NCBI GenBank assembly: GCA_946493085.1
Contig: CAMMAC010000001.1
Span: forward strand, 2,593-66,592
Direction: 5' to 3'
Source of the DNA: an uncultured Clostridiaceae bacterium
GTDB taxonomy: Bacteria > Bacillota > Clostridia > TANB77 > CAG-508
DNA length: 64,000 nt
In this document: one piece after another, positions 8,865 to 48,608 of the stretch
How the letters are laid out: every line of letters starts with the position of its first letter
How positions within the stretch are numbered: the stretch's first letter is position 1
Notes under the pieces: generated by a model
Seen by the model: only the letters and a program-made list of their open reading frames with translations
What the model was told of the DNA's origin: nothing
Database searches by the model: none
Translations under genes and position numbers: made by a program

Positions 8865-8935
8865 AATAAAAAAGTAGCAAAATTTCGAAAGAAGACGGCT
8901 ACTTTTTTATTTTCTTAATAAAAGTGTGATTATAA

Positions 8936-9074
8936 ATAGAAAATTACATAAAATAGATTGCTATAAGACAAGAATAAGTAGAAAATAATAAAAAGGTATA
9001 TTGAAATTAACCGAAAGGTAATATATAATAAAAGTATAGAGGATAAAAAACATAAGAAAAAGGAGAGGACAAGA
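8936..9074 (+). promoter_or_regulatory. Type-1 conserved leader of the variable family (copy A): upstream motif AAATTACATAAAATAGATTGC plus the promoter TTGAAA(9001-9006)-17-TATAAT(9024-9029)
   Basis: The same ~140-bp segment recurs at 9977, 11489, 12030, 12739 and, diverged, at 23078. It contains a near-consensus -35/-10 pair and an AGGAGAGGA RBS. Confidence 0.7.
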
Positions 9075-9884
9075 ATGAAAAAAGAGAATGGAATTACTAT
9101 GATAACGTTAGCAGTAACCATCATTGTACTAATTATACTAGCAGGAGTAAGTATCAATATGCTAGTAGGAGAGAATGGAATTATTACAATGGCACAAAAA
9201 GCCAAAGAAAATATAGAACTAGCACAAATAGAGGAAGAAAAACAATTAAATAATTTATATGGAGAATTAGTAAATGCAGGAGAAGGAATTTTTGATGATT
9301 CTATGGGAGATGCTATAGAAAAATTAGAAAATTTCAAAAAAATAATAGCAACAGCCATAACTAATGAGGGAGTAGCAACGTCCGAAACAGATACAGCAGA
9401 AACTATGTCAGAGAATATAGCAAAAATATTAGAAGAAAGAACAAAAGATGCCACAGCATCGGAGTCAGATATACTAGAAGGAAAAACAGCTTATATAAAA
9501 GGACAATTAGTAACAGGAACAAATAAGGGATATGATGTAGGATATAATGAAGGTTACGAAGCTGGAAAAAGTGGGAATGCTTTGACTTTTACAATAGCAA
9601 TGACAACAGCACCAAATATACCATCGGGAGCAGCAGCTTATCCAATACAAAATTTAAATATAGAAAATTACAGTACAATAACAGTTACAGGTAGTTTTTC
9701 TAGTCAATCAGATGGAGGTTCTTTTCAAATTTTAGCAGATGATAAGGTTATTTCAGATACAATAAGAAATAATTCTAGTATTAATATATCTTATGATATA
9801 TCTAATTATAGTAAACTTTCTCTTTACATATATGCAGGATATACTAGAGTTGTAAATGCCAATTTAAATGTACAAATACAATAA
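9075..9884 (+). CDS. Variable-family protein, copy A (intact): pilin-like N-terminal anchor, conserved ~150-aa N-module, unique beta-rich C-terminal domain
   Basis: MKKENGITMITLAVTIIVLIILAGVSINMLVGENGIITMAQKAKEN..., about 60-75% protein identity to copies E, F and D across the first ~150 aa (by-eye alignment of the ORF-track translations). The C-terminal GYDVGYNEGYEAGKSG... domain is unique. Confidence 0.75.
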   Translation: MKKENGITMITLAVTIIVLIILAGVSINMLVGENGIITMAQKAKENIELAQIEEEKQLNNLYGELVNAGEGIFDDSMGDAIEKLENFKKIIATAITNEGVATSETDTAETMSENIAKILEERTKDATASESDILEGKTAYIKGQLVTGTNKGYDVGYNEGYEAGKSGNALTFTIAMTTAPNIPSGAAAYPIQNLNIENYSTITVTGSFSSQSDGGSFQILADDKVISDTIRNNSSINISYDISNYSKLSLYIYAGYTRVVNANLNVQIQ

Positions 9885-9976
9885 TAATTTAAATAGAATA
9901 ATTTTTTAAAAGAAAGTAGCAGTCTTTATCTATAGATTGTTATTTTTTGACATTAAGAACTATAAAAACGATAAAT

Positions 9977-10077
9977 AAATTACATAAAATAAATTGCAAA
10001 ATAAAAGGAATAAATAGAAAATAAAATATAAGAATCGAGTCTTAGAAGTAAAAAACATAAAAAGAGGAGAAAAGGGA
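9977..10077 (+). promoter_or_regulatory. Type-1 leader remnant (copy B) lacking the -35/-10 block
   Basis: AAATTACATAAAATAAATTGC is present, but the TTGAAATTAACC...TATAAT segment is replaced by unrelated sequence. Confidence 0.5.
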
Positions 10078-10269
10078 ATGATTACAGAAAAAGGAATTAC
10101 AATGGTGGCTTTGGCAGTAACCATCATTGTACTAATTATACTAAGGAAATATAAATTGGAGTACAAATACGATAACAGCTATAGTAAATCGACTAGAATG
10201 TCCATTATATGTACAATTATTTACAATATTATAAAACAAAAGAATAGTATAATAGAAAAGAAAAAGTAG
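10078..10269 (+). pseudogene. Variable-family copy B: truncated remnant (only ~22 aa of the conserved N-terminus, then frame decay)
   Basis: MITEKGITMVALAVTIIVLIIL then unrelated residues. There is a 27-nt stretch identical to copy A (GCAGTAACCATCATTGTACTAATTATACTA). Confidence 0.65.
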
Positions 10270-10280
10270 TAATAATATCA

Positions 10281-11363
10281 CTACTTTTTTTCTTGTTTAA
10301 CGAAATTAGATTTTTTTATAGGAATTAAGAATAAGGCTCCTACTATAATAGGAAGGTAGAAAGTATAAATACGCCAAAATAAGATGGCTAAATTGATAGT
10401 TCCAGTTTTAAAAATAGATTGAAAGATAAGTAAAAATCCACCTTCTGCACCAAGACCAGCACCAGGAGTAGGAGTAATGGTCATAATCATTAATAAAAAG
10501 GCTTGTGCCGGAATAATTTGCCAATAGTTAATCCCAGAATTACCAAAAGCACGATATACCATATAAGTAATGGCATAATAGCATAAACTTTGCAGAGTTG
10601 CCCATATAAAAATTTGAAGAAGAATTTGCTTCTGGGTAAAGATAAATTTAAATTGATTACTAAAATGAATAATGCTATTAGTTACTTTTTCTTTCGCTTT
10701 ATTAAAATCTTTTATTATTTTTAATTTTGCCAAAAGTTTTACCCATGGTAAAGTAATTATAATAATGAGTTTCGGGTAAATTCCAGCAAATACAATAACC
10801 ACTACTAAAACAATATTAGCAACAAATCCTAAAATAGCGACCCATAGAAAATCTTGGAATAAATTCAGAAAAAAGGGTAATTCCCATAATACAACAATAA
10901 CTGTAAAAATTAATAAAGCTAATTGTGTTACAATGAATTTCATAGTTAAAATAGACATTGATTCACTAGCTCTTTTTCCTGTTTTGGTAAGAGCATAAGC
11001 CTGCATTGGCTGTCCACCAGAGGAAAATGGAGTTACATTATTAAATAACTGTCCTATCATATTTACTTTAATAGAATTTGTAAATTTTTGAGCGGGATAA
11101 AATTTTTTTAGTGGAATATGTAAGCACATAGTGTCGCAAAACCAAAGTCCAAGTAGAGCAAGAAGTCCCCAGCATACCCAAGTGTAATCTACTTGTTGTA
11201 ATACTAAAATAATATTATCTATACCATCTACCATAAACATATAAATTAATAAACCAATAAAAATAACTGCAATCAAAATAAAATTAAAAATAGTTACTTT
11301 TTTGCTAGTAGTTTTAATTTCTTGCTCTTCTGTTTCTATTTGAGAATTTTTATTGTCCTCCAT
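10281..11363 (-). CDS. Flippase-like / lysylphosphatidylglycerol-synthase-TM-domain (UPF0104) membrane protein
   Basis: 360 aa with about 8 TM helices. The pattern of conserved Gly/Pro/Trp positions (GQLFNNVTPFSSGGQPMQAYAL) is typical of the LPG_synthase_TM / flippase-like family. The RBS AGGAGGATT lies on the minus strand upstream. Confidence 0.7.
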   Translation of the reverse strand: MEDNKNSQIETEEQEIKTTSKKVTIFNFILIAVIFIGLLIYMFMVDGIDNIILVLQQVDYTWVCWGLLALLGLWFCDTMCLHIPLKKFYPAQKFTNSIKVNMIGQLFNNVTPFSSGGQPMQAYALTKTGKRASESMSILTMKFIVTQLALLIFTVIVVLWELPFFLNLFQDFLWVAILGFVANIVLVVVIVFAGIYPKLIIIITLPWVKLLAKLKIIKDFNKAKEKVTNSIIHFSNQFKFIFTQKQILLQIFIWATLQSLCYYAITYMVYRAFGNSGINYWQIIPAQAFLLMIMTITPTPGAGLGAEGGFLLIFQSIFKTGTINLAILFWRIYTFYLPIIVGALFLIPIKKSNFVKQEKK

Positions 11364-11488
11364 GTTATAGAATCCTCCTTTATTATCTTATTATTTATAT
11401 AAAAAAATAGAGAAAAAGTCAATCGAAATAAGAAAATCTTCATGAAATTTGAAAATACTGGGAAAAAATAAAATATAAGTATAAAAAT

Positions 11489-11559
11489 AAAATTACATAA
11501 AGTAAATTATAAAATGAAAAAATTGGTAGAAAATAATAAAGAAGAATATTGATGTTAAC
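11489..11559 (+). promoter_or_regulatory. Type-1 leader (copy C) with promoter TTGATG-17-CATAAT
   Basis: AAATTACATAAAGTAAATT motif plus the TTAACCAAAAAGTAATACATAAT promoter block. Confidence 0.5.
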
Positions 11560-11893
11560 CAAAAAGTAATACATAATATTTGATAATTTAAAGCAAGAAT
11601 TTCAAGATTTTAAAAAACAAATTGCAGAAGCATTAACCAATAAAGGTGTACAAACAGAAGAAACAGATTCTATAGAAAGCATAGTGGAGAATATTGGTAA
11701 GCAGGGTGGTAGTGGAATACAACGAATAAAAATAGGAAGTTCTTATAATGCTTCTACAGGTATTTTAACTATTTCTAGTACAAGTAATTCTGGACATTTT
11801 GATAAGGGAGATGGAAATGGAGGTATTATGTGGACAGAAGATTGGTCATGTAGTATTCAATTTGATGTTTATGCATTTATACCAAATGTATGA
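11560..11893 (+). pseudogene. Variable-family copy C: 5'-deleted copy (no start codon and no TM anchor) that retains the end of the conserved module fused to a unique C-terminal domain
   Basis: In-frame translation ...NLKQEFQDFKKQIAEALTNKGVQTEETDSIESIVENIGKQ aligns to LENFKKIIATAITNEGVATSETDTAETMSENIAKIL of copy A. The tail GSGIQRIKIGSSYNASTGILTISSTSNSGHF...WSCSIQFDVYAFIPNV is unique. Confidence 0.6.
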
Positions 11894-12029
11894 AACATGA
11901 TTTTTTAAATTAACCTCGAGTGATAAAGGAAAAATTTCTAGTCACTAGAGGTAATTTTTTATGCCTATTAGATATTACTAAATTACGAAGTAAGAAAAAA
12001 TTTATTAAAAAAGTAATAAGATAGTATGA

Positions 12030-12167
12030 AAATTACATAAAATAGATTGCTAAAAGAAAAAGTTAAATAGAAAATAAGTATATGAAAAGATTTAATATTA
12101 ACCAAAAGGTAATACATAAAAAGTATTAAAATAAAAGATAGGAAACATAAGAAAAAGGAGAAAAGCA
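12030..12167 (+). promoter_or_regulatory. Type-1 leader (copy D), promoter partly degraded (TTAATA / TACATA)
   Basis: AAATTACATAAAATAGATTGC is exact. The -35/-10 are weakened relative to copies A and E. Confidence 0.5.
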
Positions 12168-12652
12168 ATGAAGAGAGAAAATGGAATTACCATGATAACG
12201 TTAGCCGTAACCATTATTGTGTTAATTATCTTAGCAGGAGTAAGTATCAATATGTTGGTAGGAGATAATGGGATTATTACAATGGCGCAAAAAGCCAAGG
12301 AAAATATGGAACTAGCACAAATAGAAGAAGAGGAACAAATGAACAGTTTATATGAAGAATTAGCTAATGGGGCGAAGGAATTTTTGACGATTCTATGGGA
12401 GATGCTATAGAGAAATTAGAAAATTTTAGAAAGATAATAGCAACAGCTATAACGAATGAAGGAGTTGCTACAGCAGAAACAATGGCAGAGAATATTAGTA
12501 AAATATTAGAAGCAAGGACAAAAGATGTAACAGCTACAGCAGAAGATATAGCAGAAGGAAAAACAGCCTATGTAAATGGAGAAAAGATAGTAGGGACTGA
12601 AAAATATATTCATCTTATCCTAATACTGCAGGTATATATTATTGGAAATTAG
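12168..12652 (+). pseudogene. Variable-family copy D: frameshifted within the conserved module (two ORFs, 12168-12410 and 12395-12652), with the C-terminal domain missing
   Basis: MKRENGITMITLAVTIIVLIILAGVSINMLVGDNG... The frame breaks at ...EELANGAKEFLTILWEML and resumes as MGDAIEKLENFRKIIATAITNEGV.... It ends soon after DIAEGKTAYVNGEKIVGTEK. Confidence 0.7.
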
Positions 12653-12738
12653 AATACTAATCGAAATTAAAACTTTAGAAGGCAGAGAGAAATCTCTGTT
12701 TTATTTTTTGAGAAAAAAGAAAGTATAAAAATAAAAAG

Positions 12739-12880
12739 AAAATTACATAAAATTAATTGCATAGCAAAAGAAATAAATAGAAAATAAAATAAAGAAATGT
12801 TGAAATTAACCAAAAGATAAGATATAATAAAAGTATAAAGAATAGAAAAAATGGAAAACATAAGAAAAGGAGAAAACGTA
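12739..12880 (+). promoter_or_regulatory. Type-1 leader (copy E) with consensus TTGAAA(12799-12804)-17-TATAAT(12822-12827)
   Basis: Same architecture as the copy A leader. Confidence 0.7.
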
Positions 12881-13642
12881 ATGAAAAAAGAAAATGGAAT
12901 TACAATGATTACTTTAGCAGTGACGATAATTGTGTTAATTATATTAGCGGGAGTAAGTTTAAATATGACGGTAGGGGAAAGTGGAATTATCACTATGGCA
13001 CAGAAAGCAAAAGAAAACATGGAACTGGCAAAGGTAGAAGAAGAGGAACAGTTAAATAGTTTGTATGAAGAATTAGAAAAAGGAGGAGAAGGAATTTTCG
13101 ATGATTCTATGGCAGATGCTATAGAAAAACTAGAAAATTTTAGAAAGATAATAGCAACAGCTATAACGAATGAAGGAGTAAGTACAGCAAGCACAGATTC
13201 AGCAGAAACCATGGCAGAAAATATAGGTAAAATATTGCAGGAAAGAACCAAGGATGCAACTGCTATGGCGGATGATCTATCTAATGGAGTAACAGCCTAT
13301 GTAAATGGACAGAAAATAACAGGAAATGGAATGGATGTAAATAATAGTTATAATAATGGATATAATGTGGGGTATCAGGACGGAAAACAACAAAGTAACG
13401 TGAAGCAATATTCTATGTCCTTTAGTATAGGAATTAATACTACGCAAACGTATAATTTAGATAATTATGTGCAAGGAGGAAATTTATTAACTGCTTCTAT
13501 TACTTCTTGGTCAGAACCATATACAGTTAAAGCAACTTCGTTTCAATTAACGGTAAATGGAAATGTTGTTACAATTAAATATTCTAGTGGTGATGTTGGA
13601 TTTGCTGGTAGTGGTACTATCGTATTTTATTATTATGAATAG
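12881..13642 (+). CDS. Variable-family protein, copy E (intact)
   Basis: MKKENGITMITLAVTIIVLIILAGVSLNMTVGESGIITMAQKAKEN... The C-terminus YNNGYNVGYQDGKQQS...LTVNGNVVTIKYSSGDVGFAGSGTIVFYYYE is related to copy A only in the GY(D/N)VGY motif. The RBS AAAGGAGAAAA precedes the ATG at 12881. Confidence 0.75.
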   Translation: MKKENGITMITLAVTIIVLIILAGVSLNMTVGESGIITMAQKAKENMELAKVEEEEQLNSLYEELEKGGEGIFDDSMADAIEKLENFRKIIATAITNEGVSTASTDSAETMAENIGKILQERTKDATAMADDLSNGVTAYVNGQKITGNGMDVNNSYNNGYNVGYQDGKQQSNVKQYSMSFSIGINTTQTYNLDNYVQGGNLLTASITSWSEPYTVKATSFQLTVNGNVVTIKYSSGDVGFAGSGTIVFYYYE

Positions 13643-13743
13643 GAAAATACTATAATTTCTACAAAAAATCACCTTAGATTTTGTGCTAAAACAAGTTTAT
13701 TTTTGAATTGTTCAGATGAATAATATTAAAATAGAACTAAAAT

Positions 13744-13776
13744 AAAAAATGGTAGGTTATTACCTACCATTTTTTA
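13744..13776. terminator. Bidirectional intrinsic terminator between the variable-family island and the por operon
   Basis: AAAAAATGGTAGGTtattACCTACCATTTTTT: a perfect 8-bp stem flanked by A-run and T-run. Confidence 0.75.
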
Positions 13777-14736
13777 CTAATCATTATTTTTATTTGTAAT
13801 TTCTTCTAAATCTAATAGTTCTTGCCATCTCTTATCTACTTCCTCTTGGAAAGCTTCTATCATCCACTCATTGCCAGGTTTAAACATGTGTTTAAATCTT
13901 CTTTGTGGTTTCAAAAATTCTTCAATAGGAAGCTTTTTAGCAGGTTTATAAGTAATTTTATATTTACCGTCTACTACTTCATATAAAGGCCAATAGCAAG
14001 TATCTATTGCCAATTTATTAATTTGCATTAACATATCTGTTGGATAACCCCATCCTCTAGGGCATGGAGCAAGTACATTTAAGAAAGTTGGTCCTTCTGT
14101 GTAAATTGCTTTTTCAGCTTTTTCATATAAATCTTTAAAATTATTTACTCCAATGGTTTGTGCAACATAAGGTAAATGATGAGATGCCATAATTTCTGTT
14201 AAATCTTTTCTGGATTGCATTTTACCAGGAATAACATCACCTGCTGGAGATGTTGTAGTATCTGCAAAACGAGGTGTAGCAGAAGAACGTTGAATACCTG
14301 TATTCATGTAAGCACCATTATCATAGCATACATAAGTCATATCATGACCTCTTTCCATGGCACCAGATAAAGATTGAATACCAATATCATAAGTACCTCC
14401 ATCTCCACCAAAAGTGATAAATTTTGTATGCTTATCTTCTGGTAATTTTCCTTGTCTCTTCATTGCTTTGTAAGCAGCTTCTGCACCAGAACAAGTAGCA
14501 GCTGCACATTCAAAAGCAGTGTGAATATAAGAAGTGGTCCAAGAAGTATAAGGATAAATACAAGTAGAAACTTCCATACATCCTGTAGCATTAGAAACAA
14601 CAGCATGATCCTCTTCTTTTAATGCTCTCATAATCATTCTTGCAACAGGAGGAGCACCACAACCTGCACACATTCTATGTCCAGCAGTAAATCTTGCTGG
14701 TTTATTAGCAACAATTTCTTTTACATTATAAGCCAT
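13777..14736 (-). CDS. 2-oxoacid:ferredoxin oxidoreductase, beta (TPP-binding) subunit
   Basis: GDGGTYDIG TPP motif. CAGCGAPP Cys cluster at the N-terminus. Last gene of a four-gene gamma-delta-alpha-beta operon. Confidence 0.85.
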   Translation of the reverse strand: MAYNVKEIVANKPARFTAGHRMCAGCGAPPVARMIMRALKEEDHAVVSNATGCMEVSTCIYPYTSWTTSYIHTAFECAAATCSGAEAAYKAMKRQGKLPEDKHTKFITFGGDGGTYDIGIQSLSGAMERGHDMTYVCYDNGAYMNTGIQRSSATPRFADTTTSPAGDVIPGKMQSRKDLTEIMASHHLPYVAQTIGVNNFKDLYEKAEKAIYTEGPTFLNVLAPCPRGWGYPTDMLMQINKLAIDTCYWPLYEVVDGKYKITYKPAKKLPIEEFLKPQRRFKHMFKPGNEWMIEAFQEEVDKRWQELLDLEEITNKNND

Positions 14737-15935
14737 TATTTAGCACCTCCTTTTAATCCAAAATAACGATAAGGATTCTCTACTTTTCCAGTAGATGCAA
14801 TTTCTTGTAAATCCTGGTATACACCTTCAATTTCTTTTGTAGTAGTATCTCTACCACCAATACCATAAACGTAATTTACAGTAGGAACTTGCATACCATT
14901 GGTATATAAACCAGAAGTAACATCTGTAAATAAAGCTCCACCACAAGCATTTAGGCTTTCTGCTTTATCTAAAACAGCAAGAGCTTTTACATGAGAAACA
15001 GCTTTTGCAATTTCTTCAGCAGGGAATGGTCTAAATACACGAAGTTTTAGAAGACCAGCCTTTACGCCTTGCTCTCTTAAAGCATCTACTACTACTTTGG
15101 TTGTTCCAGCAGTAGAATTCATACAAATAATGGCAATTTCTGCATCTTCTAATTTATATTCTTCAAAGAAACTATATTTTCTACCAGTCATCTTTTCAAA
15201 ATCTTCTGCTACTTCTAAGATTATCTTTTTAGCAGCACGCATTGCATTTGCTTGTTGGTATTTATGTTCAAAAAGATAAGCTTGTAAATCCATTGGACCA
15301 ACAGCAATTGGCTCTTTATCATTTAAAAGATAATGCTCTGGTTTGTATTCTCCTACAAAATTCTTTACTTTGTCATCCTCTATTAATTCAATATTTTCAA
15401 TAGAATGAGAAGTAATAAATCCATCTTGGCAAACACATAAAGGAAGTCTAACATCTTTATGTTCTGCAATACGATGGGCCATAATTAAATTATCGTAAGC
15501 TTCTTGGTTGTTTTCTGAAAACAACATAATCCATCCACTATCACGAATACCCATAGCATCAGAATGGTCATTGTGAATATTCAGTGGACCAGAAATAGCA
15601 CGGTTTACTAGAGGCATAACAATAGGAAGCCTTAAAGAAGAGGCAATATATACCATCTCCCACATTAAAGCAAGACCATTAGAAGAAGTAGCTGTCATGG
15701 CTCTTCCTCCAGCAGCTTCTGCACCAATGCAAGCACTCATAGCACTATGCTCACTTTCTACTGCCACAAACTCTGTATCTACTGTTCCATTACTAACAAA
15801 AGTAGAAAAATATTGTGGAATTTCAGTAGAAGGTGTAATAGGAAAAGCAGCAACAACATCTGGATTAATTTGCTTCATAGCAATAGCAGATGCTTCATTA
15901 CCACTTAAACGTTCTCTAATACTCATATTTTTCAT
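14736..15935 (-). CDS. 2-oxoacid:ferredoxin oxidoreductase, alpha subunit
   Basis: 399 aa transketolase-like domain. Overlapping stop/start with the beta subunit. Confidence 0.85.
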   Translation of the reverse strand: MKNMSIRERLSGNEASAIAMKQINPDVVAAFPITPSTEIPQYFSTFVSNGTVDTEFVAVESEHSAMSACIGAEAAGGRAMTATSSNGLALMWEMVYIASSLRLPIVMPLVNRAISGPLNIHNDHSDAMGIRDSGWIMLFSENNQEAYDNLIMAHRIAEHKDVRLPLCVCQDGFITSHSIENIELIEDDKVKNFVGEYKPEHYLLNDKEPIAVGPMDLQAYLFEHKYQQANAMRAAKKIILEVAEDFEKMTGRKYSFFEEYKLEDAEIAIICMNSTAGTTKVVVDALREQGVKAGLLKLRVFRPFPAEEIAKAVSHVKALAVLDKAESLNACGGALFTDVTSGLYTNGMQVPTVNYVYGIGGRDTTTKEIEGVYQDLQEIASTGKVENPYRYFGLKGGAK

Positions 15936-15946
15936 CCTTTCTATCT

Positions 15947-16243
15947 TTAAATTTCTTTCATTTCAATTGCACCGAATGGGCAAGTTTTAGCACAAACACC
16001 GCAACCTTTGCAATAATCATAATTAAAATCCGTTCTTTTTTGATCTTTTCCTACTGGAATTGCGTTGTCTGGGCAAACTGGGAAACAAAGACCGCATTGT
16101 TTACATTTTTCAGGAATAAAAACGGGTTTTACACTTCTCCAGTCACCTGTTTTAAAACAAACAGAATTACCAGCTTCGTAGATATCTCCACCTGGTGTCA
16201 TTTCCTGCCATGGAGTATCTTTATTAATTTTTACGTCAGCCAT
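15947..16243 (-). CDS. 2-oxoacid:ferredoxin oxidoreductase, delta subunit (2x[4Fe-4S] ferredoxin)
   Basis: CKQCGLCFPVCP and CKGCGVCAKTCP motifs. Confidence 0.85.
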   Translation of the reverse strand: MADVKINKDTPWQEMTPGGDIYEAGNSVCFKTGDWRSVKPVFIPEKCKQCGLCFPVCPDNAIPVGKDQKRTDFNYDYCKGCGVCAKTCPFGAIEMKEI

Positions 16244-16258
16244 TTTCTATTTCCTCCT

Positions 16259-16846
16259 TTACATTTCTACTTCATGAACATCTTTTAAAGCCATCTCTAA
16301 AGCCTTCATGTTACCTTCAATTACTTCAGGTTTTTTTGCAAATTTGTGCTTAAAAGAACCTTGCATATCATTTATAAATTCTTCTTCCGTCATAATGCCA
16401 GAGACTTTAACAATAGCTGCAAGCATTGGTGTGTTTGGGAAATACTTGCCAAGTGCTTCTTCTGATATTTTTTTCGCATCTACTGTATACACTTTTCCTT
16501 TATAACCATGTAAAACAGATTTTAAATAAGTAGCATCTTTTGTGGTGTTAATAACAATAGCACCGGTTTCTTTTAAACCATCTGTTACAGGAACAGACTC
16601 TAATAAAGAATCATCTACAACAACTACATAATCTGGTTCATAAATATTACTATGAATACGAATAGGAGAGCTACTAATACGGTTGTATGCAGTAATAGGA
16701 GCACCCATTCTCTCTGGACCATATTCCGGAAAACCTTGAATATATTTGCCAGTATTAAAAGCTGCATCAGCAAGAAGTAGAGAAGCAGTTTTTGCACCTT
16801 GTCCGCCTCTACCATGCCATCTAATTTCAATAATGTTATCCATCAC
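16259..16846 (-). CDS. 2-oxoacid:ferredoxin oxidoreductase, gamma subunit
   Basis: IEIRWHGRGGQGAKTAS motif. The start was placed at the internal Met (MDNIIE..) downstream of the RBS AAAGGA; the ORF extends to 16885. Confidence 0.8.
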   Translation of the reverse strand: MMDNIIEIRWHGRGGQGAKTASLLLADAAFNTGKYIQGFPEYGPERMGAPITAYNRISSSPIRIHSNIYEPDYVVVVDDSLLESVPVTDGLKETGAIVINTTKDATYLKSVLHGYKGKVYTVDAKKISEEALGKYFPNTPMLAAIVKVSGIMTEEEFINDMQGSFKHKFAKKPEVIEGNMKALEMALKDVHEVEM

Positions 16847-16961
16847 ATTCATTCCTTTCTCTTTGTATTTTCCTACTCTTTTCAAAACATATTGCTAGTC
16901 TTAAGTATATGCTTTGAGGCAAAAATTGTCAAGAGATTTTAGGCAACTACCGAATGGTCAG

Positions 16962-17024
16962 GTGTCCATTTAAGTCAGTCTTTTTTGAGACATGTCTCAT
17001 TTAACCCTGACTTAAATGGACATT
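16962..17024 (-). repeat. REP-like composite palindromic repeat (full copy, minus orientation)
   Basis: Outer 15-bp inverted repeat GTCCATTTAAGTCAG...CTGACTTAAATGGAC around the self-complementary core GAGACATGTCTC. The reverse complement aligns nearly end to end with 46682-46743. Confidence 0.7.
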
Positions 17025-17145
17025 AGTCGAATGATGTCGAAAAATAACTGATTGTACATTAGTATTGTTAAATCACATACAATATGATATATTAGTATAT
17101 GGAAATAATCATAAAGACCAACACTAAGTACAATAGTACATAGTA

Positions 17146-17184
17146 AAAGAGTAGGAAATGTTGTGGATTCCTACTCTTTTTTGT
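17146..17184 (+). terminator. Orphan intrinsic terminator in the por / NlpC-P60 intergenic region
   Basis: AAAAGAGTAGGAAatgttgtggaTTCCTACTCTTTTTTG: 9-bp stem plus T-run. No plus-strand CDS lies upstream. Confidence 0.55.
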
Positions 17185-17429
17185 TCCTTGTATTATCTCT
17201 TTAATAGAGCTATGAATACAAAATCAATATATTAATATAGACCAAATATTAATATATTGTGAATACCAATAGCAATGAAAGTTACTTGTTATTCACTACA
17301 GATATATTACTACATTTTTTTTGATATGTCAAACATTATATTGAAAAAGAAGGCAAAACGGTTGACTTTTTATCTTCTTTTAGTATATACTTAAGTCCGA
17401 AATGAAAGAAAAAAAGGAGCAGATGATAC

Positions 17430-18788
17430 ATGTTATCGAAAGCGAAAAATTTTATGCTACTATTAGGAATGACAAGCATTTTTATACTTTTATGGACAGC
17501 TAGTAGCTATGCTACAACAGGAATTGTAAATACAGAAACATTGAAATTAAGAAAAGCCCCTTCTACTAGTTCAGAAATATTAGATTTACTAGACTATAAT
17601 GAGAAGTTAGAAATAACAGGCGAAGAAGGTGAATGGTACAGTGTAGTACATGAAGGAACAGCAGGTTATGTGAGCAAGCAATATATGAGAGTAGAAGAGG
17701 AAGAAGAGACACAAACGAATACACAAGTAAGTGAAACGGTAGCAACTACCGAGGTAGAAAATGTACTGGAAAATACTACTACAAATACAACAACAGAAAC
17801 TACAAGCGCAGAGGTTACTCAGCCAGAAGAGACAACTACGCCAACACAAAATGTATTAAAAGAAGATACACAAATTAGCATCTTACCTTTAATACAAGCT
17901 AGTAAAATAGGAACAGAAAAGAAAGGAACTAGTGTAGAAATAATCACAACGGCTGGAAATTGGTGTTACATTGCGACAGAAAATCTAAATGGATGGGTAA
18001 GACAGGATGCTTTAGAAACTGAAACACCACAAACGACTACTCCAGAAGAAACTACACCAACTACAGAGGAGACTCCAGCTACAACCGAACAAGAAACAGC
18101 AATAGAAGAAACAACTATGTATGTAACAGGTTCTTCGGTTTATGTAAGATCAGGACCTGGAACAAACTATGAAATTGTTACCTCTCTTATTAGAGGAAAT
18201 TCCGTAAAGGCAGTTGCAGAAACAAGCCAGTGGTATAAAGTAGAAGTAAATGGACAAACCGGTTATATTTCCAAAAGCTTAGTATCTACTACAAGACCAG
18301 AAACTACATCTAGAGGTACAGAAACCTCTAGAACGCAAGACGAAGAAGAGCAGGTAAGTAGTACACCACAAGAAGAAAATACACAAGTAGAACAAACAGT
18401 AGTACAAACAAGTACTGGTCAGCAAATTGTAGATTATGCGAAAAACTATTTAGGATGCAAGTATGTTTATGGAGGTTCTGGACCAAATACATTTGATTGT
18501 TCCGGATTTACGATGTATGTTTACCAAAAATTTGGAGTAACACTTAGTCATTCTGCTAGAGCACAATCTAAGGTAGGAACAGCAGTAGAAAAAGAAAACT
18601 TACAATTAGGAGATTTAGTATTTTTTAAAGATTACGAGACCATGGACGGAATAGGTCACTGTGGTATTTATATAGGAGATGGCAACTTTATTCATGCCTC
18701 TTCTGGAACAGGATATTGTGTAAAAATCTCTACCTTATTATCTGGTAGTTATGCTACAAGATATGAAACAGCAAGAAGAGTTATTTAA
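17430..18788 (+). CDS. Secreted cell-wall hydrolase: signal peptide, two SH3b domains, Thr/Glu-rich linkers, C-terminal NlpC/P60 endopeptidase
   Basis: SH3b-like ...LKLRKAPSTSSEILDLLDYNEKLEI..WYSV... is present twice. The NlpC/P60 catalytic region is DCSGFTMYVYQKFG...H...GHCGIYIGDG. Confidence 0.85.
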   Translation: MLSKAKNFMLLLGMTSIFILLWTASSYATTGIVNTETLKLRKAPSTSSEILDLLDYNEKLEITGEEGEWYSVVHEGTAGYVSKQYMRVEEEEETQTNTQVSETVATTEVENVLENTTTNTTTETTSAEVTQPEETTTPTQNVLKEDTQISILPLIQASKIGTEKKGTSVEIITTAGNWCYIATENLNGWVRQDALETETPQTTTPEETTPTTEETPATTEQETAIEETTMYVTGSSVYVRSGPGTNYEIVTSLIRGNSVKAVAETSQWYKVEVNGQTGYISKSLVSTTRPETTSRGTETSRTQDEEEQVSSTPQEENTQVEQTVVQTSTGQQIVDYAKNYLGCKYVYGGSGPNTFDCSGFTMYVYQKFGVTLSHSARAQSKVGTAVEKENLQLGDLVFFKDYETMDGIGHCGIYIGDGNFIHASSGTGYCVKISTLLSGSYATRYETARRVI

Positions 18789-18847
18789 AAAAAGAAAAAT
18801 GGGGCAATACATAAAAAGGAAAATGTTTTCCTTTTTAGAAAGAAGCG

Positions 18848-21280
18848 GTGAAGAAAATGCAAATTGCTCTATTTGGTTGGATATTAGGATTGATAGGGGG
18901 ACTATACTTACCAAAATTAAGTATAGTCTTTTTTCTATGCTTTTTATTAGGAATACTACTATTAAAAAATGTAAAGAAAAAATATAGCATGCTTAGGATT
19001 GTACAAAGGCATATTTCCTATCAAAAAATTATCGTCATGGCAATAAGTTTTATCCTAGCCTTTCTACTTATACAAGAAAAAGAAAGAGATTATAGCCAAA
19101 GATACGCAGAGGTAATGGGGGAGGCAGAAGTGATAGGCACCATTGTGAGCATGCCAAAAGAAAAAGAATATAGAACGGATTATACCATGCAAGTAGAGAG
19201 CATAAATGGACAAATTTTGCAAAAGAATACCAAAATTTTGTTACAGCTAAAAAAGGGAAAACAAGCACAAAAGAATTTAGTTTATGGAAATAAAATAAAA
19301 GTAAAAGTAGAATTAAAAATGCCAACAGAAGCTAGAAATACGGGAGGGTTTGATTACAGTTTTTATTTAAAAACAAAGCAAATTTATGCAATTGCTATAG
19401 GTAAAGAAGATGATGTTACTCTTTTAAAAAACGAAAATAGCAATTTGTGGCAAAAAGCAGTAACGGCGGTAAAGCAGTCTATTATAGAACAAGTAAAGAA
19501 AGTATTGCCACAAGAGGAAGCAGACTTATTTATAGGCATATTAATTGGAGAAAGACAAGGGATACAAGAAGAAATCGAAAAGAATTTTAAAAATAGTAGT
19601 TTAACTCATCTTCTAGCTGTTTCTGGTTCTCATGTAGCTTATATTTTGATGGGAGTTACTTTTGCTGTAACGCAGCTAAAAGGAGACAAAAAAATAGGGA
19701 AAATAGGAACCATTTTATTTCTATTCTTTTTCATGGAATTAACAGATAGAACTGCATCGGTAGTAAGAGCGTGTATTATGGCAATGTATGCTATAGTAGC
19801 GAATTTATGTCATAAAAAAATAGATTGGCTAGGTAGTATTTGCTTTAGCTTGTGGTGGATATTGTTAGAAAATCCGTATAGTTTATGGGATACCTCCCTT
19901 ATTTTGTCTTATGGAGGAACAATAGGCATTTTATTATTTATTCCTCTTTTTCAGAAAAAGCAAAATCCAAACGAGGGGAAAAATCATAAACTATTAGAAA
20001 AGTGTAAAAATTATCTAAAGGAAAGTTTCATAATTACTATTAGTGCCAACTTAATTTTACTTCCCATTATGGCGTATTTATTTTATACTTTATCTTTTAC
20101 CTTTTGGATAGGTAATTTGCTGGCTACACCGCTCATGGAAGGAATTATATTCATAGGTATTGCATTTTTGGCAAGTGCCTATTTATGCATGCCTTTAGCA
20201 ATAATAATAGCTGTGTCATTAAAATGCCTGTTACAATTATTACTGCTAGTAGCAAAAGTATGTGCAAACCTACCTTTCTCTAATATAAGTGTAATAAGAC
20301 CACCCGTGGTTGGTATACTTTTCTACTACATATTTCTATTTTTGTGGATAGGATATGGTAGATTGTCCCAAAGAAGAAAAGCACAAATAAAAGAAATGTA
20401 TAGAAAAAAGAGAAAGACCGTTTTGATAAGTTTCCTACTCATGGTTGTTCTTCTAACATTGCTATATAAAGTACCAGGAGAGTTAGAAATCTTTTTTATA
20501 GATGTTGGTCAAGGAGACAGCATGTTAGTGATAACACCACAAAAGAAAACTTTGCTAGTAGATGGAGGAGGGAGTAAAAGCACAAGTTTTGATGTGGGCG
20601 AGCAAACGCTACTTCCTTACTTATTGAATAAAGGAATTAAAACTATCGATTATATGATGCCATCTCATTTTGATGAAGACCACGTGCAAGGATTATTTAC
20701 TATTCTAGAAAAATTAACCGTAAAAAAGGTAATTGTAGCAGAGCAAAAAGTAGATTCAGAAAATTATCAAAAATTTATGAAATTCGTAGAAGAAAAAAAT
20801 ATACAAACTATATGGGTAAAACAGGGAGATAAAATTTTATTAGAAAAAGGAGTAAACTTAGATATTTTATGGCCAAAAACAGAATGGATAGCAGAAAATC
20901 CACTCAATAATAATGCTATTGTAGCAAATTTGCATTATGGGAAATTTAGTTTATTATTCACAGGAGATATAGAAGAAATAGCAGAAAAAGAAATTCTACA
21001 ATGCTATCAAAATACAGAGTTATGCAAGGCTACTGTGTTAAAAGTAGCCCATCACGGCTCAAAATCCTCTAGTATACAGTCTTTTTTAACAATGATAAAA
21101 CCAAAAATTGCTTTAATTGGTGTGGGAGAAACGAACACCTTTGGACATCCAAATGAGGGTGTTTTAGAAAGGTTAGAAAAGATAGGTGCCAAAATTTATA
21201 GAACAGATGAAAATGGAGAAATCAGTCTAAAAGTAAACAAAGAAGGAAAAATAAAAATAAATACCAAAATTGGAAAATAA
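18848..21280 (+). CDS. comEC: DNA internalization competence protein ComEC/Rec2 (DUF4131, competence domain, metallo-beta-lactamase domain)
   Basis: 810 aa polytopic membrane region followed by an MBL-fold domain (FIDVGQGDSMLV...HFDEDHVQG...AHHGSKSS). Confidence 0.85.
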   Translation: MKKMQIALFGWILGLIGGLYLPKLSIVFFLCFLLGILLLKNVKKKYSMLRIVQRHISYQKIIVMAISFILAFLLIQEKERDYSQRYAEVMGEAEVIGTIVSMPKEKEYRTDYTMQVESINGQILQKNTKILLQLKKGKQAQKNLVYGNKIKVKVELKMPTEARNTGGFDYSFYLKTKQIYAIAIGKEDDVTLLKNENSNLWQKAVTAVKQSIIEQVKKVLPQEEADLFIGILIGERQGIQEEIEKNFKNSSLTHLLAVSGSHVAYILMGVTFAVTQLKGDKKIGKIGTILFLFFFMELTDRTASVVRACIMAMYAIVANLCHKKIDWLGSICFSLWWILLENPYSLWDTSLILSYGGTIGILLFIPLFQKKQNPNEGKNHKLLEKCKNYLKESFIITISANLILLPIMAYLFYTLSFTFWIGNLLATPLMEGIIFIGIAFLASAYLCMPLAIIIAVSLKCLLQLLLLVAKVCANLPFSNISVIRPPVVGILFYYIFLFLWIGYGRLSQRRKAQIKEMYRKKRKTVLISFLLMVVLLTLLYKVPGELEIFFIDVGQGDSMLVITPQKKTLLVDGGGSKSTSFDVGEQTLLPYLLNKGIKTIDYMMPSHFDEDHVQGLFTILEKLTVKKVIVAEQKVDSENYQKFMKFVEEKNIQTIWVKQGDKILLEKGVNLDILWPKTEWIAENPLNNNAIVANLHYGKFSLLFTGDIEEIAEKEILQCYQNTELCKATVLKVAHHGSKSSSIQSFLTMIKPKIALIGVGETNTFGHPNEGVLERLEKIGAKIYRTDENGEISLKVNKEGKIKINTKIGK

Positions 21281-22906: not shown

Positions 22907-22914
22907 GATTATGG

Positions 22915-23010
22915 AAATAAGTATCCACTAAAAAGAGAAATAAAAAGGTAACAAAAAATAAAGAAAATATATAATCCTCCTTGAAATTAGAGAAATCAAG
23001 GAGGATAAAC
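22915..23010 (+). promoter_or_regulatory. Type-2 leader (remnant G) with a perfect 10-bp SD-sequestering stem (TCCTCCTTGA / TCAAGGAGGA)
   Basis: TATAAT at 22970-22975. The hairpin spans 22975-23006. Confidence 0.55.
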
Positions 23011-23481: not shown

Positions 23482-23483
23482 GA

Positions 23484-44056: not shown

Positions 44057-46703
44057 ATGTGGCATACAAAAGGAATTTCTAAAGTAGAAGAAGAGCTTGG
44101 GACAAGTATTAGGCAGGGCTTATCTGGAAAAGAGGCAAAAGAAAGACTACAAAAGGAGGGACCAAATGAACTGACAAGCAAGAAAAAAGAATCCTTGCTA
44201 GTACGTTTTCTTAAACAATTTAACGACTTTATGATTATTATTTTAATTATAGCATCCATTATTTCAGCAGTAGTAGCAAGCATAGAGGGAAGCGGAGACT
44301 ATATGGATTCCATTATTATTATAGCCATCGTAATAGTGAATGCGATGATGGGAGTTTTACAAGAAGCAAAGGCAGAAAAAGCATTAGAGGCATTAAAGAA
44401 TATGACAGCACCTACGGCAAAAGTAAAAAGAGAGGGAAAGGTACAAACCATACCAGGAATAGAAGTAGTACCGGGAGACGTTATTCTTTTAGAAGCAGGA
44501 AATTACGTGCCAGCAGATGCTAGAATTATAAAAGCATCGAATTTAAAAATAGAAGAAGCTAGCCTTACAGGAGAAACGGTAGCAGTAGAAAAGCAAGAAG
44601 GAATCATTCAGGAAGAAACAATAAGCATAGGGGATATGTATAATATGGTATTCGCCTCTACTATAGTGGTGAACGGACATGGTGAGGCAATTGTAACCCA
44701 AACAGGGATGCATACAAAAGTGGGACAAATTGCTAATATGATTATGGAGGAAGAAGCTCCTCAAACACCAATTCAAAAGAAGTTAGCAGAAGTAGGAAAA
44801 GCCTTAGGAATAGCCTGCTTAGTAATATGCACTCTTATCTTTGTAATAGGGCTATTGAAACAAATATCTCCAATAGAAATGTTTATGACTTCTGTGGGAC
44901 TTGCTGTGGCAGCTATTCCAGAAGGGTTGCCAGCCATTGTTACAATAGTATTATCGATAGGTGTAACAAAAATGGCAAAGAAAAACAGTATTATTAGACA
45001 TCTACCAGCAGTAGAAACATTAGGTAGTAGTAGCGTTATTTGTTCAGATAAAACAGGAACATTAACTCAAAATAAAATGACAGTAAGAGAAGTGTTTACT
45101 ATGGGAAGCACAAAAGAAGAACTAGCCCTTCAGTTTGGAACTATGTGTAGTGATGTAGTAGCAGAAGAAAAAGAAGCAGGACAAGAATTAGTAGGAGAAG
45201 CAACAGAAATTGCTATTGTAAGAGGAGCCATAGAAAAAGGCATTCGAAAAGAAAAATTAGAGAAAGAAGCACCAAGAGTAGCAGATATCCCTTTTGATTC
45301 TAATAGAAAAAGAATGAGTACGATCCATGAAAAAGAAGGACAATATCAAATTGTATGTAAAGGAGCGCCAGATGTTTTATTAGAGAGATGCTCCTATTAT
45401 CAAGACGGAGAAAAAATAAGTAGCCTTACTCCTCACATAAAGGAACAAATAGAAAAACAGAATGAAAAAATGGCAGAAAATGCCCTTAGAGTAATTGCAG
45501 TTGCCTATAAAATGCAAAGCGTGTTACCAAACACAATAAAAAGCGAAGAAATAGAAAATGAGCTTATTTTTGTAGGATTAATAGGCATGATAGATCCTCC
45601 AAGAGAAGGCGTAAAAGAAGCGGTAGCTACTTGCAGAAAAGCAGGAATTAAAACCGTAATGATAACAGGTGACCATGTCATTACTGCCAAAGCCATTGCC
45701 AAAGAGTTAGGCATTTTGAAAAGTGGAGATAAAAGTATTACAGGAGCAGAATTAGAAAAAATATCGCAAAAAGAATTAGAAAAAAATATCATGGGATATT
45801 CTGTTTTTGCAAGAGTATCGCCAGAGCATAAAGTAAGAATTGTAAAAGCTTTTCAGAGTACAGGAGCAGTGGTAGCTATGACAGGAGATGGGGTAAATGA
45901 TGCGCCTGCACTAAAAAATGCAGATATCGGTATTGCAATGGGACAAAATGGCACAGATGTAGCAAAAAACGCGGCAGACATGATATTAGTAGATGATAAT
46001 TTTGTGACAATAGTAGGAGCGGTAAAGCAAGGAAGAAATATTTATGATAATATTAAAAAGGCAATCCATTTCTTAATTGCTACTAATATAGGAGAAATTG
46101 TTACGATTTTTATGGGATTAGTATTAGGATTAAAAACGCCTCTTCTTGCCATTCAGTTATTATGGATAAATTTAGTAACCGATTCTTTCCCAGCCATTGC
46201 ATTAGGACTAGAAAAACCAGAAAAAGATATTATGAGCAAAAAGCCTAGAGATGCCAAAAAAGGTATTTTTGCAGATGGATTATGGAGTAAGATTTTTGTA
46301 GAAGGTATCATGCTTGGTATGCTTACACTATTTGCTTTTAGTATAGGAAACTATCTATTTGGTTTAGAAGTGGGAAGAACAATGGCATTTGTATCATTAG
46401 GAATGTTAGAATTAATCCACAGCTTTAATATAAAAAGTGAAGAAAGTATTTTCAAAATGCGGATTTTTAGAAAACAAATATCTATTGGGAGCCTTTTTAT
46501 TAGGAGCGGCGTTACAAATAGGAGTTGTCGTTATTCCACCACTTGCACAAATCTTTGATGTAGTTCCACTAAATGGAATGCAATGGTTATATACCATAGG
46601 AATTTCGCTGTTACCAATTCCAATTATGGAATTACAGAAAAAATGGAATGAAATAAAATTTGGAAAAGTAGTATATGGGGTGTCCCATTCAAGTCAGGGT
46701 TAA
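44057..46703 (+). pseudogene. P-type (type IIA, Ca2+-like) cation ATPase interrupted by a frameshift near 46450
   Basis: DKTGTLT phosphorylation motif, TGDGVNDAPAL hinge, PEGLP in TM4. The final TM helices continue in another frame (ORF 46437-46703). Confidence 0.8.
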
Positions 46704-46743
46704 GTGAGACATGTCTCAAAAATGTCAGGGATAAGTGGGACAC
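46682..46743 (+). repeat. REP-like composite repeat (full copy) overlapping the 3' end of the ATPase and abutting the type-2 leader
   Basis: GTCCCATTCAAGTCAGGGTTAAGTGAGACATGTCTCAAAAATGTCAGGGATAAGTGGGACAC: internal palindrome GAGACATGTCTC and direct repeats of GTCAGGG(A/T)TAAGTG(A/G)GAC. Confidence 0.7.
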
Positions 46744-46862
46744 ACAAAGAAAAAAGTCGAAAATTATGGAAATAAGTAACCAGTAAAAAAGGAAAAGTAA
46801 AAGAGAAGAAAAAGCAAAGAAAGATATAATCCTCTTTATAAGAAAAAAGCAAGGAGGATAAG
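46744..46862 (+). promoter_or_regulatory. Type-2 leader (copy I) with TATAAT (46825-46830) and an SD-sequestering hairpin (46831-46858)
   Basis: CCTCTTT pairs with AAGGAGG(A) (includes a G-U wobble). Conserved block GTCGAAAATTATGGAAATAAGTAAC at 46756. Confidence 0.55.
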
Positions 46863-48608
46863 ATGATGCAAAAACAAAAGAATAAACAAAAAGGTATTAC
46901 ATTAATTGCATTAGTTGTAACAATTATCGTTTTAATTATACTAGCGGGGGTATCCATTAACATGTTAGTAGGAGATAATGGAATTATAACACAAGCACAG
47001 ATAGCAAAAGAAGAAACTGAACAAACACGCAAGGAGGAATTACAAGAATTAGCAACTTTAGAAACAGCTCTAGAAGAAGCTTCTGGGAATATTTATGTTA
47101 AAGAAGAAGGTGTAAATAAACCAAGGTTGACTACTGGAATGACACCAATTAAATTTATAGATCCCACAGATACAACTAAAGGAAGTGTTGTTATAACTAC
47201 AAGTGAGGATAAAGATTGGTATCAGTATGATGAAAAGAAATGGGCAAATGCCCAAACGGAAGATGGAAGCATGTGGGTATGGATACCAAGGTTTGCATAT
47301 AGAGTAAATGAGAGTACTAAAACTTTTGATGTTGTATTTTTAATAGGAACAACAGATACGTATTATGATAGAAATGGGCAAATACAAACAGCAAAACGTT
47401 GTACGAGTGAAGATGAATTAGTAGATACAAGCACAGGCTATACCGTGCATCCAGCCTTTACAGATGAAACAGACATCAACTTTAGAAACGGAGGATGGGA
47501 TAAAGAAATAACAGGTATATGGGTAGCTAAATTTGAGGCAGGCTATGCTAGTGGAAATAATGGTGCAGAAGTAGTAGCAAGTAGCGTGAACTATAGTCAA
47601 AGTAATGCATGGATAAGAAGTATAGAATTACATGGAAACACTACAACAGGCGATGGAAATGGAAATGCAAGAAACTGGTTAGATGGCATCTATGAAAGTA
47701 CAACAACAGCCATTAAATACCCTGTATTTCAACCAACAACCTATGGTATGAATTATATTAATATAAATGATGCTTATAATATAGCAAAAGTATTAACAGA
47801 GAATGGAAATATCTATGGCTTTAATGGAGCAGCAGACAGCCACTTAATGAAAAATAGTGAATGGGGAGCTTGTGCCTATCTATCCAAGAGTCAATATGGA
47901 TTAAATACAATAGACATAGCTATAAATAATATAACTTTAAATAGTGGAGCAAAACAAAGAACAGAAGCAGCAGGGCAAAATGAGGTAGATAGCGTATATG
48001 CAGTAACAGGCTGTACTACGGGAAATACAACAGGAGAAAAACAAACAACCATAGAAAATATCAATGCAACAACAGGGAATACGGCACTAGATGGAGTATA
48101 TACGTGGGATCAGTTAAATGGAATAAAAGCAAGTTGTACAGGAACTATTTATGGGATATATGATTTAAGTGGAGGTTTAGTGGAAAGAACAACAGGATAC
48201 GTAGCAAATGGAAAAAAAGAATTAAAAAATTATGGAGCATCTTTTACTTATGAAGATGATGTTTTAAAAACAGTTAGTACCAAATATGCAACTGTATATA
48301 TAAATAATAACACAACAGATAATGCTAGTGTAACGGATACACAAGAGCATTTAAATATAGCAAGTACGAATAACTGGCTAGCAAATAAATTAATCTATGG
48401 CGATGCCATCCGAGAGACATCTACACAAGGAACTGGCAATAATTCATGGTATGAAGATGACTCTTACTTCCCAGGACTTTACTATCCGTTTACTATCCGC
48501 GGCGGAAGTTTCAGAGGTATGGATGGACCTGGTCTATTTAATTTCAGCCGTACTAATGCTCCTAGCCATTATGGAGATGGATTTCGTGCAGTTGTAATTG
48601 TGTCGTAA
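46863..48608 (+). CDS. Variable-family protein, copy I (intact, 581 aa): pilin-like anchor plus short conserved module, large unique extracellular region, C-terminus with an FGE/C-type-lectin-like signature
   Basis: N-terminal MMQKQKNKQKGITLIALVVTIIVLIILAGVSINMLVGDNGIITQAQIAKEE. The C-terminal ...GLYYPFTIRGGSFRGMDGPGLFNFSRTNAPSHYGDGFRAVVIVS resembles the RGGSW...GFR ending of FGE-sulfatase / CLec-fold domains. Confidence 0.75.
   Translation: MMQKQKNKQKGITLIALVVTIIVLIILAGVSINMLVGDNGIITQAQIAKEETEQTRKEELQELATLETALEEASGNIYVKEEGVNKPRLTTGMTPIKFIDPTDTTKGSVVITTSEDKDWYQYDEKKWANAQTEDGSMWVWIPRFAYRVNESTKTFDVVFLIGTTDTYYDRNGQIQTAKRCTSEDELVDTSTGYTVHPAFTDETDINFRNGGWDKEITGIWVAKFEAGYASGNNGAEVVASSVNYSQSNAWIRSIELHGNTTTGDGNGNARNWLDGIYESTTTAIKYPVFQPTTYGMNYININDAYNIAKVLTENGNIYGFNGAADSHLMKNSEWGACAYLSKSQYGLNTIDIAINNITLNSGAKQRTEAAGQNEVDSVYAVTGCTTGNTTGEKQTTIENINATTGNTALDGVYTWDQLNGIKASCTGTIYGIYDLSGGLVERTTGYVANGKKELKNYGASFTYEDDVLKTVSTKYATVYINNNTTDNASVTDTQEHLNIASTNNWLANKLIYGDAIRETSTQGTGNNSWYEDDSYFPGLYYPFTIRGGSFRGMDGPGLFNFSRTNAPSHYGDGFRAVVIVS

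Follow-up and report, generated by a model that had tools for sequence, protein, structure and literature searches.

The 64,000-nt window analysed here, taken from contig CAMMAC010000001.1 (positions 2,593 to 66,592, forward strand) of an uncultured Clostridiaceae bacterium, carries a family of genes whose products begin with a pilin-like signal sequence. Our results are best explained, with a probability of roughly 0.6, by a lineage-specific and much expanded superfamily of modular cell-surface proteins, in which this signal is followed by a helical stalk and a variable head, and whose members undergo paralog turnover. Homologous recombination inside the conserved module makes chimeras, swaps heads, and deletes genes between close strains, other copies decay, and the four decayed copies in the window are pseudogenes, not donor cassettes. 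The N-terminal motif occurs 6-7 times in the window, with six sites given by a degenerate pattern, compared with 0.01 expected by chance. A tblastn census with 120 homologs located eight family regions at three loci, all on the + strand (c1, 9030-9881; c2 stub, 10051-10158; tail copy, 11570-11857; c3, 12147-12640; c4, 12851-13639; c5, 22142-22903; c6, 23179-23639; c7, 46851-47120). The features are as follows.

9001-9029, + strand: promoter of c1, TTGAAA-17-TATAAT, in agreement with the consensus at 11/12 positions and sharing the top rank in 8800-13800
9075-9884, + strand: c1, intact, 269 amino acids (aa), with a class III-like signal peptide, stalk module, and jelly-roll head
10051-10269, + strand: c2 stub, in which 23 family codons run into unrelated sequence, with deletion of the -35/-10 segment
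11549-11893, + strand: 5'-deleted tail copy, with a TTGATG-17-CATAAT site, partial stalk module, and small C-domain
12168-12652, + strand: c3 pseudogene, with a 1-nt loss in a G run, a recombination breakpoint, and no C-domain
12800-12828 (promoter, 11/12) and 12881-13642 (gene), + strand: c4, intact, 253 aa; 100% identical in contig L002
22169-22906, + strand: c5, intact, 245 aa, with a second type of upstream region
23215-23639, + strand: c6, internally deleted pseudogene, N-terminal part to about 23462 and an out-of-frame C-terminal tail at 23456-23639
46863-48608, + strand: c7, intact, 581 aa, of a separate subfamily that has the signal peptide and first helix (about 55 aa) in common with the others

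Four of these genes are thus intact and four are decayed, which agrees with the original prediction of a three-locus family with four intact copies, a promoterless stub, a 5'-deleted copy, a frameshifted and C-terminally truncated copy, and an internally deleted copy. A separate orphan tail fragment was also listed there, but none was found, and the elements number eight, not nine. The tail copy lacks the signal peptide and helix (its first ~80 codons), keeps a promoter-like site, and is conserved in the sister strain represented by contig L001. The same 63-aa open reading frame (ORF) of the stub is present in L001 and absent from the sister species contig L008. In c3, the frameshift lies at 12369-12372, where the window has GGGG and L001 has GGGGG, and a terminator follows the gene at 12679-12702. 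The out-of-frame tail of c6 shares 98% identity with the final 61 aa of an intact relative, P0037. The truncated copies had been considered as possible assembly artefacts; this was not borne out, because two independent contigs reproduce the copies. L001 matches 8206-12610 at 98.5% and 13781-19042 at 99.5%, and L002 is 100% identical to 12592-16861. The c1 counterpart from another sample, P0001, is a 99% identical protein, while the c4 slot in L001 holds a different gene. The c5 ortholog P0025 was found on 14 contigs, all of which end soon after the gene. Similarly, assemblies of this species stop at or beside family copies: contigs L003-L007 end at about 23000, and L002 begins at 12592, inside the end of c3. 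For this reason, metagenome-assembled genomes (MAGs) probably under-represent or mis-join the family loci.

The conserved module of about 150 aa is common to c1, c3, c4, and c5 and partly present in c6 and the tail copy. The expectation that all copies have it fails for c7, in which the common part is about 55 residues and which is a member of another subfamily, of 575 aa and highly conserved. Pairwise nucleotide identity over the shared module was 63-84% within the window, lower than the ~90% estimated by eye. Exact runs of at least 27 nt were confirmed for c3-c4 (49 nt) and c1-c2 (30 nt), but the longest runs in the remaining pairs were 7-24 nt.

An AlphaFold2 model of c1, with a predicted local distance difference test score (pLDDT) of 80, placed helices at residues 5-31 and 36-67, then a weak linker of low confidence, and after it a helical stalk (76-122), a hairpin (138-148), and a beta-sandwich (170-268). 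Among folds similar to the predicted head were Ena spore-appendage subunits, the TNF-like lectins BC2L-C and PLTL, and CBM6/35 modules, as well as the lambda gpJ tip, phage tail fibres, and host-specificity proteins. In addition, c1, c4, c5, and two L001 genes matched phrog_38337 over residues ~113-185 (E = 5e-6 to 3e-9), and the stalk and hairpin also matched phrog_24330, annotated as a tail fiber protein. Each c1-type protein of the window carries a single hairpin unit (ATAxDIxxGKTAYVNGxKITG). A c1-type protein thus combines an anchor resembling that of pilins with a stalk, a single hairpin of phage type, and a head that is variable and lectin-like. The C-terminal region of c7 is large, conserved, and unlike the heads of c1-c6; its structure prediction gave no usable model (pLDDT 41). 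An assignment of this region as formylglycine-generating-enzyme-like was dropped, as it was based on by-eye motifs only (WEWT, RGG, and GFR) and had no Pfam support.

Signal-peptide statistics were collected for 238 family proteins. Gly occupies position -1 in 228 and Ala in 8 of them; Ile or Val follows at +1, all 238 have Thr at +2, and Leu stands at +6, the consensus after the leader being I/V-T-L/M-I/V-(S/T/A)-L. Position +5 is nearly always Ser, Thr, or Ala, with Val, Met, or Ile in 7 proteins and Glu in none. The uncharged tract is exactly 21 aa long in 197/238 proteins, and the leaders, of 5-9 aa (median 6 or 9), are basic with a net positive charge. Class III (type IV pilin) signal peptides are defined in the literature by a short hydrophilic leader with Gly or Ala at its end and, immediately following the cleavage site, 20-25 mainly hydrophobic residues that begin a helix of ~50 residues, with Glu5 frequent and not universal (PMC10191384; PMC8179133). 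By these sequence features, the family N-terminus conforms to this definition, Glu5 excepted. The earlier description of a prepilin-like motif without Glu5 therefore agrees with the statistics of the larger set. Searches with profile models gave a mixed outcome for the N-terminal module. N_methyl was the commonest Pfam family among 83 relatives, with matches in 39 of them, all below threshold (best E 4.5e-4). The best sequence matches in the PDB for module residues 1-24 were MshA, PilE1, and geopilin, all weak, and the module profile aligned weakly over its first 24 residues with the N-terminus of the MshA pilin (E = 0.03). Single members have been named "type II secretion system protein" by PGAP and "Tfp pilus assembly protein" by JGI.

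According to the mechanism that we propose, the prepilin peptidase of the organism would remove a basic leader ending in Gly or Ala. The hydrophobic tract, which continues into a helix of about 60 residues, would then either retain the protein in the membrane or dock it into or onto a type IV filament. A protein lacking Glu5 could be placed as a capping or tip subunit of such a filament. The stalk would carry the head through the wall, and the head might bind glycans or other ligands. Peptidase cleavage, filament association, and ligand binding are the steps that we infer in this scheme.

Several results weigh against this reading, and they are largely the same ones that favour its closest competitor, according to which the family consists of ordinary N-terminally anchored (type II) membrane proteins whose resemblance to pilins arose by convergence or is a vestige, which are not cleaved and have no tie to any type IV filament, and for which the account of stalk, head, and turnover is unchanged. 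Glu5 is absent from 238/238 family proteins. No copy has a significant Pfam or NCBIfam model, the thresholds of PF07963 and TIGR02532 included; c7 scored 17.3 bits against N_methyl (PF07963), for which the cut-off is 21.2, and c1-c6 gave no match. In the model of c1, which has long helices, a stalk, and a separate beta-sandwich head, no sheet packs against the first helix; the canonical pilin fold was not seen, although a monomer model of a membrane helix is weak evidence on this point. Ligand binding by the heads is weakly suggested by fold similarity of the model, with a TM score of ~0.45 on the target. Neither the window nor the 10 kb on each side of about 75 family loci (1.3 Mb) held an extension ATPase, a platform protein, or a canonical pilin of GFTLIE type, and motif scans of these 1.3 Mb for T2SSE/PilB/CpaF ATPases matched ABC transporters only. 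A Peptidase_A24 gene was found in a sister species and none in the window, and cleavage of the family proteins by a prepilin peptidase is a putative step. Finally, the superfamily probably belongs to the order TANB77, an assignment resting on one indirect link: the isolate UMGS1663 carries one family member, and the genus UMGS1663 belongs to TANB77 (PMC11680825).

An uncleaved anchor, however, explains neither the near-invariant Gly/Ala at -1, Thr at +2, and Leu at +6 nor the exact 21-residue tract, and this residue pattern aligns position by position with the MshA N-terminus, weak as that match is. A prepilin peptidase gene is, moreover, present in the lineage and adjoins a member in two MAGs. 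In MAG CALXBX01, from a sister species syntenic with the window at 86-96% nucleotide identity, an ORF (L039, 12323-13075) scored 71.9 bits against Peptidase_A24 and lies two genes downstream of the c7 ortholog. Candidate peptidase ORFs were also located near family members on contigs L042 and L073. We regard the uncleaved type II anchor as the most serious of the alternatives, though an unlikely one, and retain the superfamily of pilin-like modular surface proteins as the preferred reading.

Each intact gene has its own predicted promoter and ribosome-binding site. The sequence TTGAAA-17-TATAAT precedes both c1 and c4, and no other site in the 5-kb region matches a promoter as well as these two. 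The corresponding segment is degraded at c3 (TTTAAT...CATAAA), deleted at the stub, and weaker but present at the tail copy. An upstream element, AAATTACATAAAAT, is common to c1-c4, c6, and the tail copy, and it is enriched 5' of family genes in other species, where 16/126 upstream regions contain it compared with ~1 expected. Its extended form, AAATTACATAAAAT(A/T)(G/A)ATTG, lies ~160 nt upstream of the cleavage-site codon in c1-type genes, with sites at about 8940-8965, 9975-9995, 11490-11510, 12030-12050, and 12740-12760, and may be a site for a shared regulator. A second kind of upstream region precedes c5 and c7. No inverted repeats were found flanking any family promoter, no invertible element or promoter was found in the window, and none of the Pfam-annotated genes of the window codes for a recombinase.

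Comparison of strains documented two mosaic variants among near-identical genomes. The window c3 follows L001 c3 over the upstream region and the first ~270 nt and then follows L001 c4; 50/52 informative sites match L001 c3 before the breakpoint at 12416-12444, and 26/26 match L001 c4 after it (Fisher p = 5e-15). In L001, c3 is an intact gene of 409 aa, and the next slot is occupied by a different gene of 292 aa. The second case is contig L095, which lacks the window sequence 22623-23456 and has a single intact hybrid gene joining the c5 module to the c6 head, between flanks 98.9% and 99.6% identical to the window. Recombination between conserved modules, as originally predicted, is thus confirmed by the c3 chimera and the c5/c6 hybrid. 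Both events were deletions or unequal exchanges between tandem neighbours and so are irreversible. In the sister species contig L008, the slot is filled by a 528-aa gene in which the same head as in L001 c3 sits on a different stalk. The two tandem genes of L001 are 98% identical to each other over their first ~170 nt, which suggests local homogenisation. Purifying selection was indicated by dN/dS (the ratio of nonsynonymous to synonymous substitution rates) values of 0.19 overall and 0.26 in the c1 head, compared with 0.05-0.10 in neighbouring genes. Positive selection on the c1 head was considered and rejected, as there was no sign of it at a dN/dS of 0.26. Phase variation through the G run of c3 was likewise rejected; the tract differs merely as GGGG versus GGGGG, and c3 has no head. 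A chimera and a head swap between strains thus point to evolutionary turnover between paralogs, not to demonstrated switching.

These comparisons bear on programmed antigenic variation, the system originally proposed for this DNA, in which one or a few expressed genes would be diversified at high frequency by gene conversion, with silent or partial cassettes as donors, on the pattern of pilE/pilS, vlsE, or vsp. Such a system would account for a conserved 5' module ahead of unrelated heads, for partial copies adjoining intact ones, for mosaic and head-swapped variants among strains with flanks 98.5-99.6% identical, and for the homogenised start of the L001 tandem genes. However, the intact copies each have a strong predicted promoter and there is no single expression site, the repeats cover only the upstream regions and the 5' module with no 3' homology block, and the window has neither an invertible segment nor a nearby recombinase. 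The stub and c3, two of the four decayed copies, hold no variable sequence to donate, and the stub and tail copy were inherited unchanged in the sister strain L001. Truncated copies are also rare elsewhere: only five of the 156 complete family ORFs in other genomes were shorter than 120 aa, and four of these five were in the window or L001. With module identity in the genome at 63-84% and exact runs short, with both recorded events irreversible deletions between tandem neighbours, and with the heads under purifying selection, we consider programmed antigenic variation very improbable. The comparison with pilE/pilS-, vlsE-, or vsp-type architecture does not extend to genes with their own promoters, no 3' block, and stable decayed copies.

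The relationship of the family to phages was also considered. The module profile was searched against 1.84 billion representative proteins and gave 33,712 matches at E <= 1e-3, 15,391 at E <= 1e-10, and 389 at E <= 1e-30; the 15,391 matches include phage repeat proteins. Profile positions ~126-170 (ATAxDILxGKTAWVNGxKITGT) recur 7-20 times in phage-family proteins of 546-2122 aa. Examples are P0241, P0243, P0244, P0348, and P0358, of 546-2122 aa and built of 7-20 ATAxDILxGKTAWVNGxKITGTMP hairpin units. Such hairpin-repeat proteins match phrog_13589 and phrog_38337 with E down to 1e-186, but no Pfam domain, and for this reason the hairpin looks like an undescribed phage repeat. In the viral contig L084 (IMG/VR UViG_3300006139_000118; region 8436-11197), a gene has the family pilin-like N-terminus and the C-terminal WEWT...RGG...GFR motifs seen in c7. 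It is preceded by ORFs of 100 and 252 aa, which we take by eye to be a holin and an amidase-type endolysin. The c7-like gene of L084 may be a phage moron of the superfamily.

The family might accordingly be read as prophage remnants or cargo, that is, tail-fibre or receptor-binding genes or morons instead of a host surface family, and the phage-type stalk and hairpin, the resemblance of the head to tail-fibre tips, the position of the L084 gene just after the putative holin and endolysin, and eight IMG/VR contigs with the N-terminal motif would fit this; but the window loci lie among housekeeping genes (a toxin-antitoxin pair, LPG synthase, PFOR, ComEC, a pgsA-like gene, and Ca-ATPase) with no other phage genes, tblastn with c5 against 50,697 GenBank phages gave no match, a membrane-anchoring signal peptide is untypical of virion fibres, and genomes have dozens of copies with their own promoters, so that a prophage origin seems the least probable explanation of all.

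Several known systems resemble the superfamily in part. Modular type IV pilins have been described in Streptococcus sanguinis, in which PilB carries a von Willebrand factor A (vWA) module and PilC a lectin module, and such modules are highly diverse (Raynaud et al. 2021, PMC8179133). A modular pilin in this sense has the N-terminal IPR012902 motif together with an extra, unrelated C-terminal module; the architecture of the present family is alike, but its motif is subthreshold. In S. sanguinis PilB, the signal peptide is canonical, Glu5 included, the fold is truly that of a pilin, and the gene belongs to the pilus operon, whereas the present proteins are without Glu5, use a helical stalk and phage-type hairpin as carrier, and are encoded by dispersed genes, dozens per genome. 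The minor pilins GspK/PulK and PilK also lack Glu5; they are filament-tip capping subunits that have class III signal peptides, some of them with extra domains (PMC10191384). Unlike the family, they occur once per system, and their genes accompany those of the partner minor pilins and machinery. The family genes have no such neighbours, and a tip location for their products is putative. In the Sulfolobus "bindosome", sugar-binding proteins carry class III signal peptides (PMC3047682). The likeness lies in a pilin-type signal peptide serving as a general surface route for varied proteins, not for a classical pilus. The bindosome is, however, archaeal, consists of ABC-transporter binding proteins, and has a dedicated Bas assembly system, of which no equivalent was identified for the family.

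A comparison closer to the present organism is the Tad-like pilus cluster reported to be conserved in the order TANB77, in which seven "pilin-like proteins" of 143-236 aa are encoded with a CpaF/TadA ATPase and a TadB/C platform (Nat Commun 2024, PMC11680825). These proteins probably come from the same lineage, and they likewise have a short cytoplasmic leader, one transmembrane helix, and an external domain, several of them with their own promoters. The family differs by description, being dispersed, strain-variable, and not described in PMC11680825. Neisseria pilE/pilS, Borrelia vlsE, and Mycoplasma vsp/vlp share with the family a multicopy surface protein, partial copies, and inter-copy recombination; in contrast to pilE/pilS, there is no single expression site, the intact copies are not promoterless, the variable part is not bracketed by homology on both sides, and the partial copies behave as stable pseudogenes. 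A conserved N-terminal part is likewise found in mosaic phage tail fibres and receptor-binding proteins, whose C-terminal heads are exchanged by recombination at a conserved junction, which in the family is the GKTAYVNG hairpin of phage families phrog_13589 and phrog_38337. The family genes nevertheless are chromosomal host genes coding for proteins with a membrane-targeting signal peptide, not virion components.

A bolder proposal can be added to the preferred reading, although we hold it to be doubtful. The Glu5-less class III peptide could be the main surface-display route of this reduced-genome gut lineage, in which the peptidase would process dozens of interchangeable subunits, some of their parts being phage tail-fibre modules, and each would be displayed on its own at the tip of a type IV filament (Tad- or Com-like) or pseudopilus, with recombination in the shared module re-assorting heads between strains as a population-level "adhesin wardrobe". 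If the family proteins are prepilin-peptidase substrates, the idea of the modular pilin would be extended to a carrier without Glu5 and to a genome-wide scale, and host adhesins would be linked to phage tail-fibre modules. TANB77-type Clostridia are common in the human gut and have never been cultured, and their "pilin-like" proteins have recently been linked to immunotherapy response (PMC11680825). The family is without a Pfam or NCBIfam model, yet it has at least 32 members in one genome, these cells probably make much of their contact with the surroundings through it, and its loci differ between strains that are otherwise 99% identical.

All homologs came from MAGs of uncultured "Clostridia bacterium" from the human, rabbit, and mouse gut. 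A scan of species-representative genomes confirmed at least 328 relatives; MAG JBKUYM01 accounted for 32 or more distinct members, and CALXBX01, of the sister species, for 21 or more. The paralogs lie in tandem, in variable slots among housekeeping genes. Homologs of the c7 type number more than 7298, with many per genome, and 45 aligned members have a mean column identity of 75%. Contig L091 has seven tandem intact c7-type genes (1890-15792) with 85-93% protein identity, compared with one in the window. The spacers of this array are 293-300 nt long and nearly identical, and variable patches occur at residues ~61-90 and ~541-570.

The window has an AT-rich composition (G+C ~30%) and codes for housekeeping proteins of Firmicutes/Clostridia type, including EF-G, EF-Tu, a two-component system, signal peptidase I, PFOR, an NlpC/P60 hydrolase, ComEC, ClpC, MinDE, RodA, SMC, and a Ca-ATPase. 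A Phd/YoeB toxin-antitoxin pair is located at 8350-8864, directly 5' of the first locus, and a MazF toxin at 37960-38304. In L008, two small ORFs at 13878-14427, which we presume to be a toxin-antitoxin pair, fill the variable slot beside PFOR. In other strains, two or three large serine recombinase genes (L003, 4350-8357; L004, 520-4527) lie upstream of a 198-aa ORF and a BofC-like gene, in blocks that correspond to window positions ~20.2-20.7 kb (comEC). We suspect this 198-aa ORF to be the 3' end of comEC; the element is perhaps inserted in comEC, which is reminiscent of sporulation-gene intervening elements. The Ca-translocating P-type ATPase gene of the window (44057-46703) is apparently frameshifted near its 3' end: its 833-aa ORF runs into nonsense residues and stops at 46558, while the true C-terminus lies in another frame at 46437-46703, which could be a sequencing error or could mark a pseudogene.

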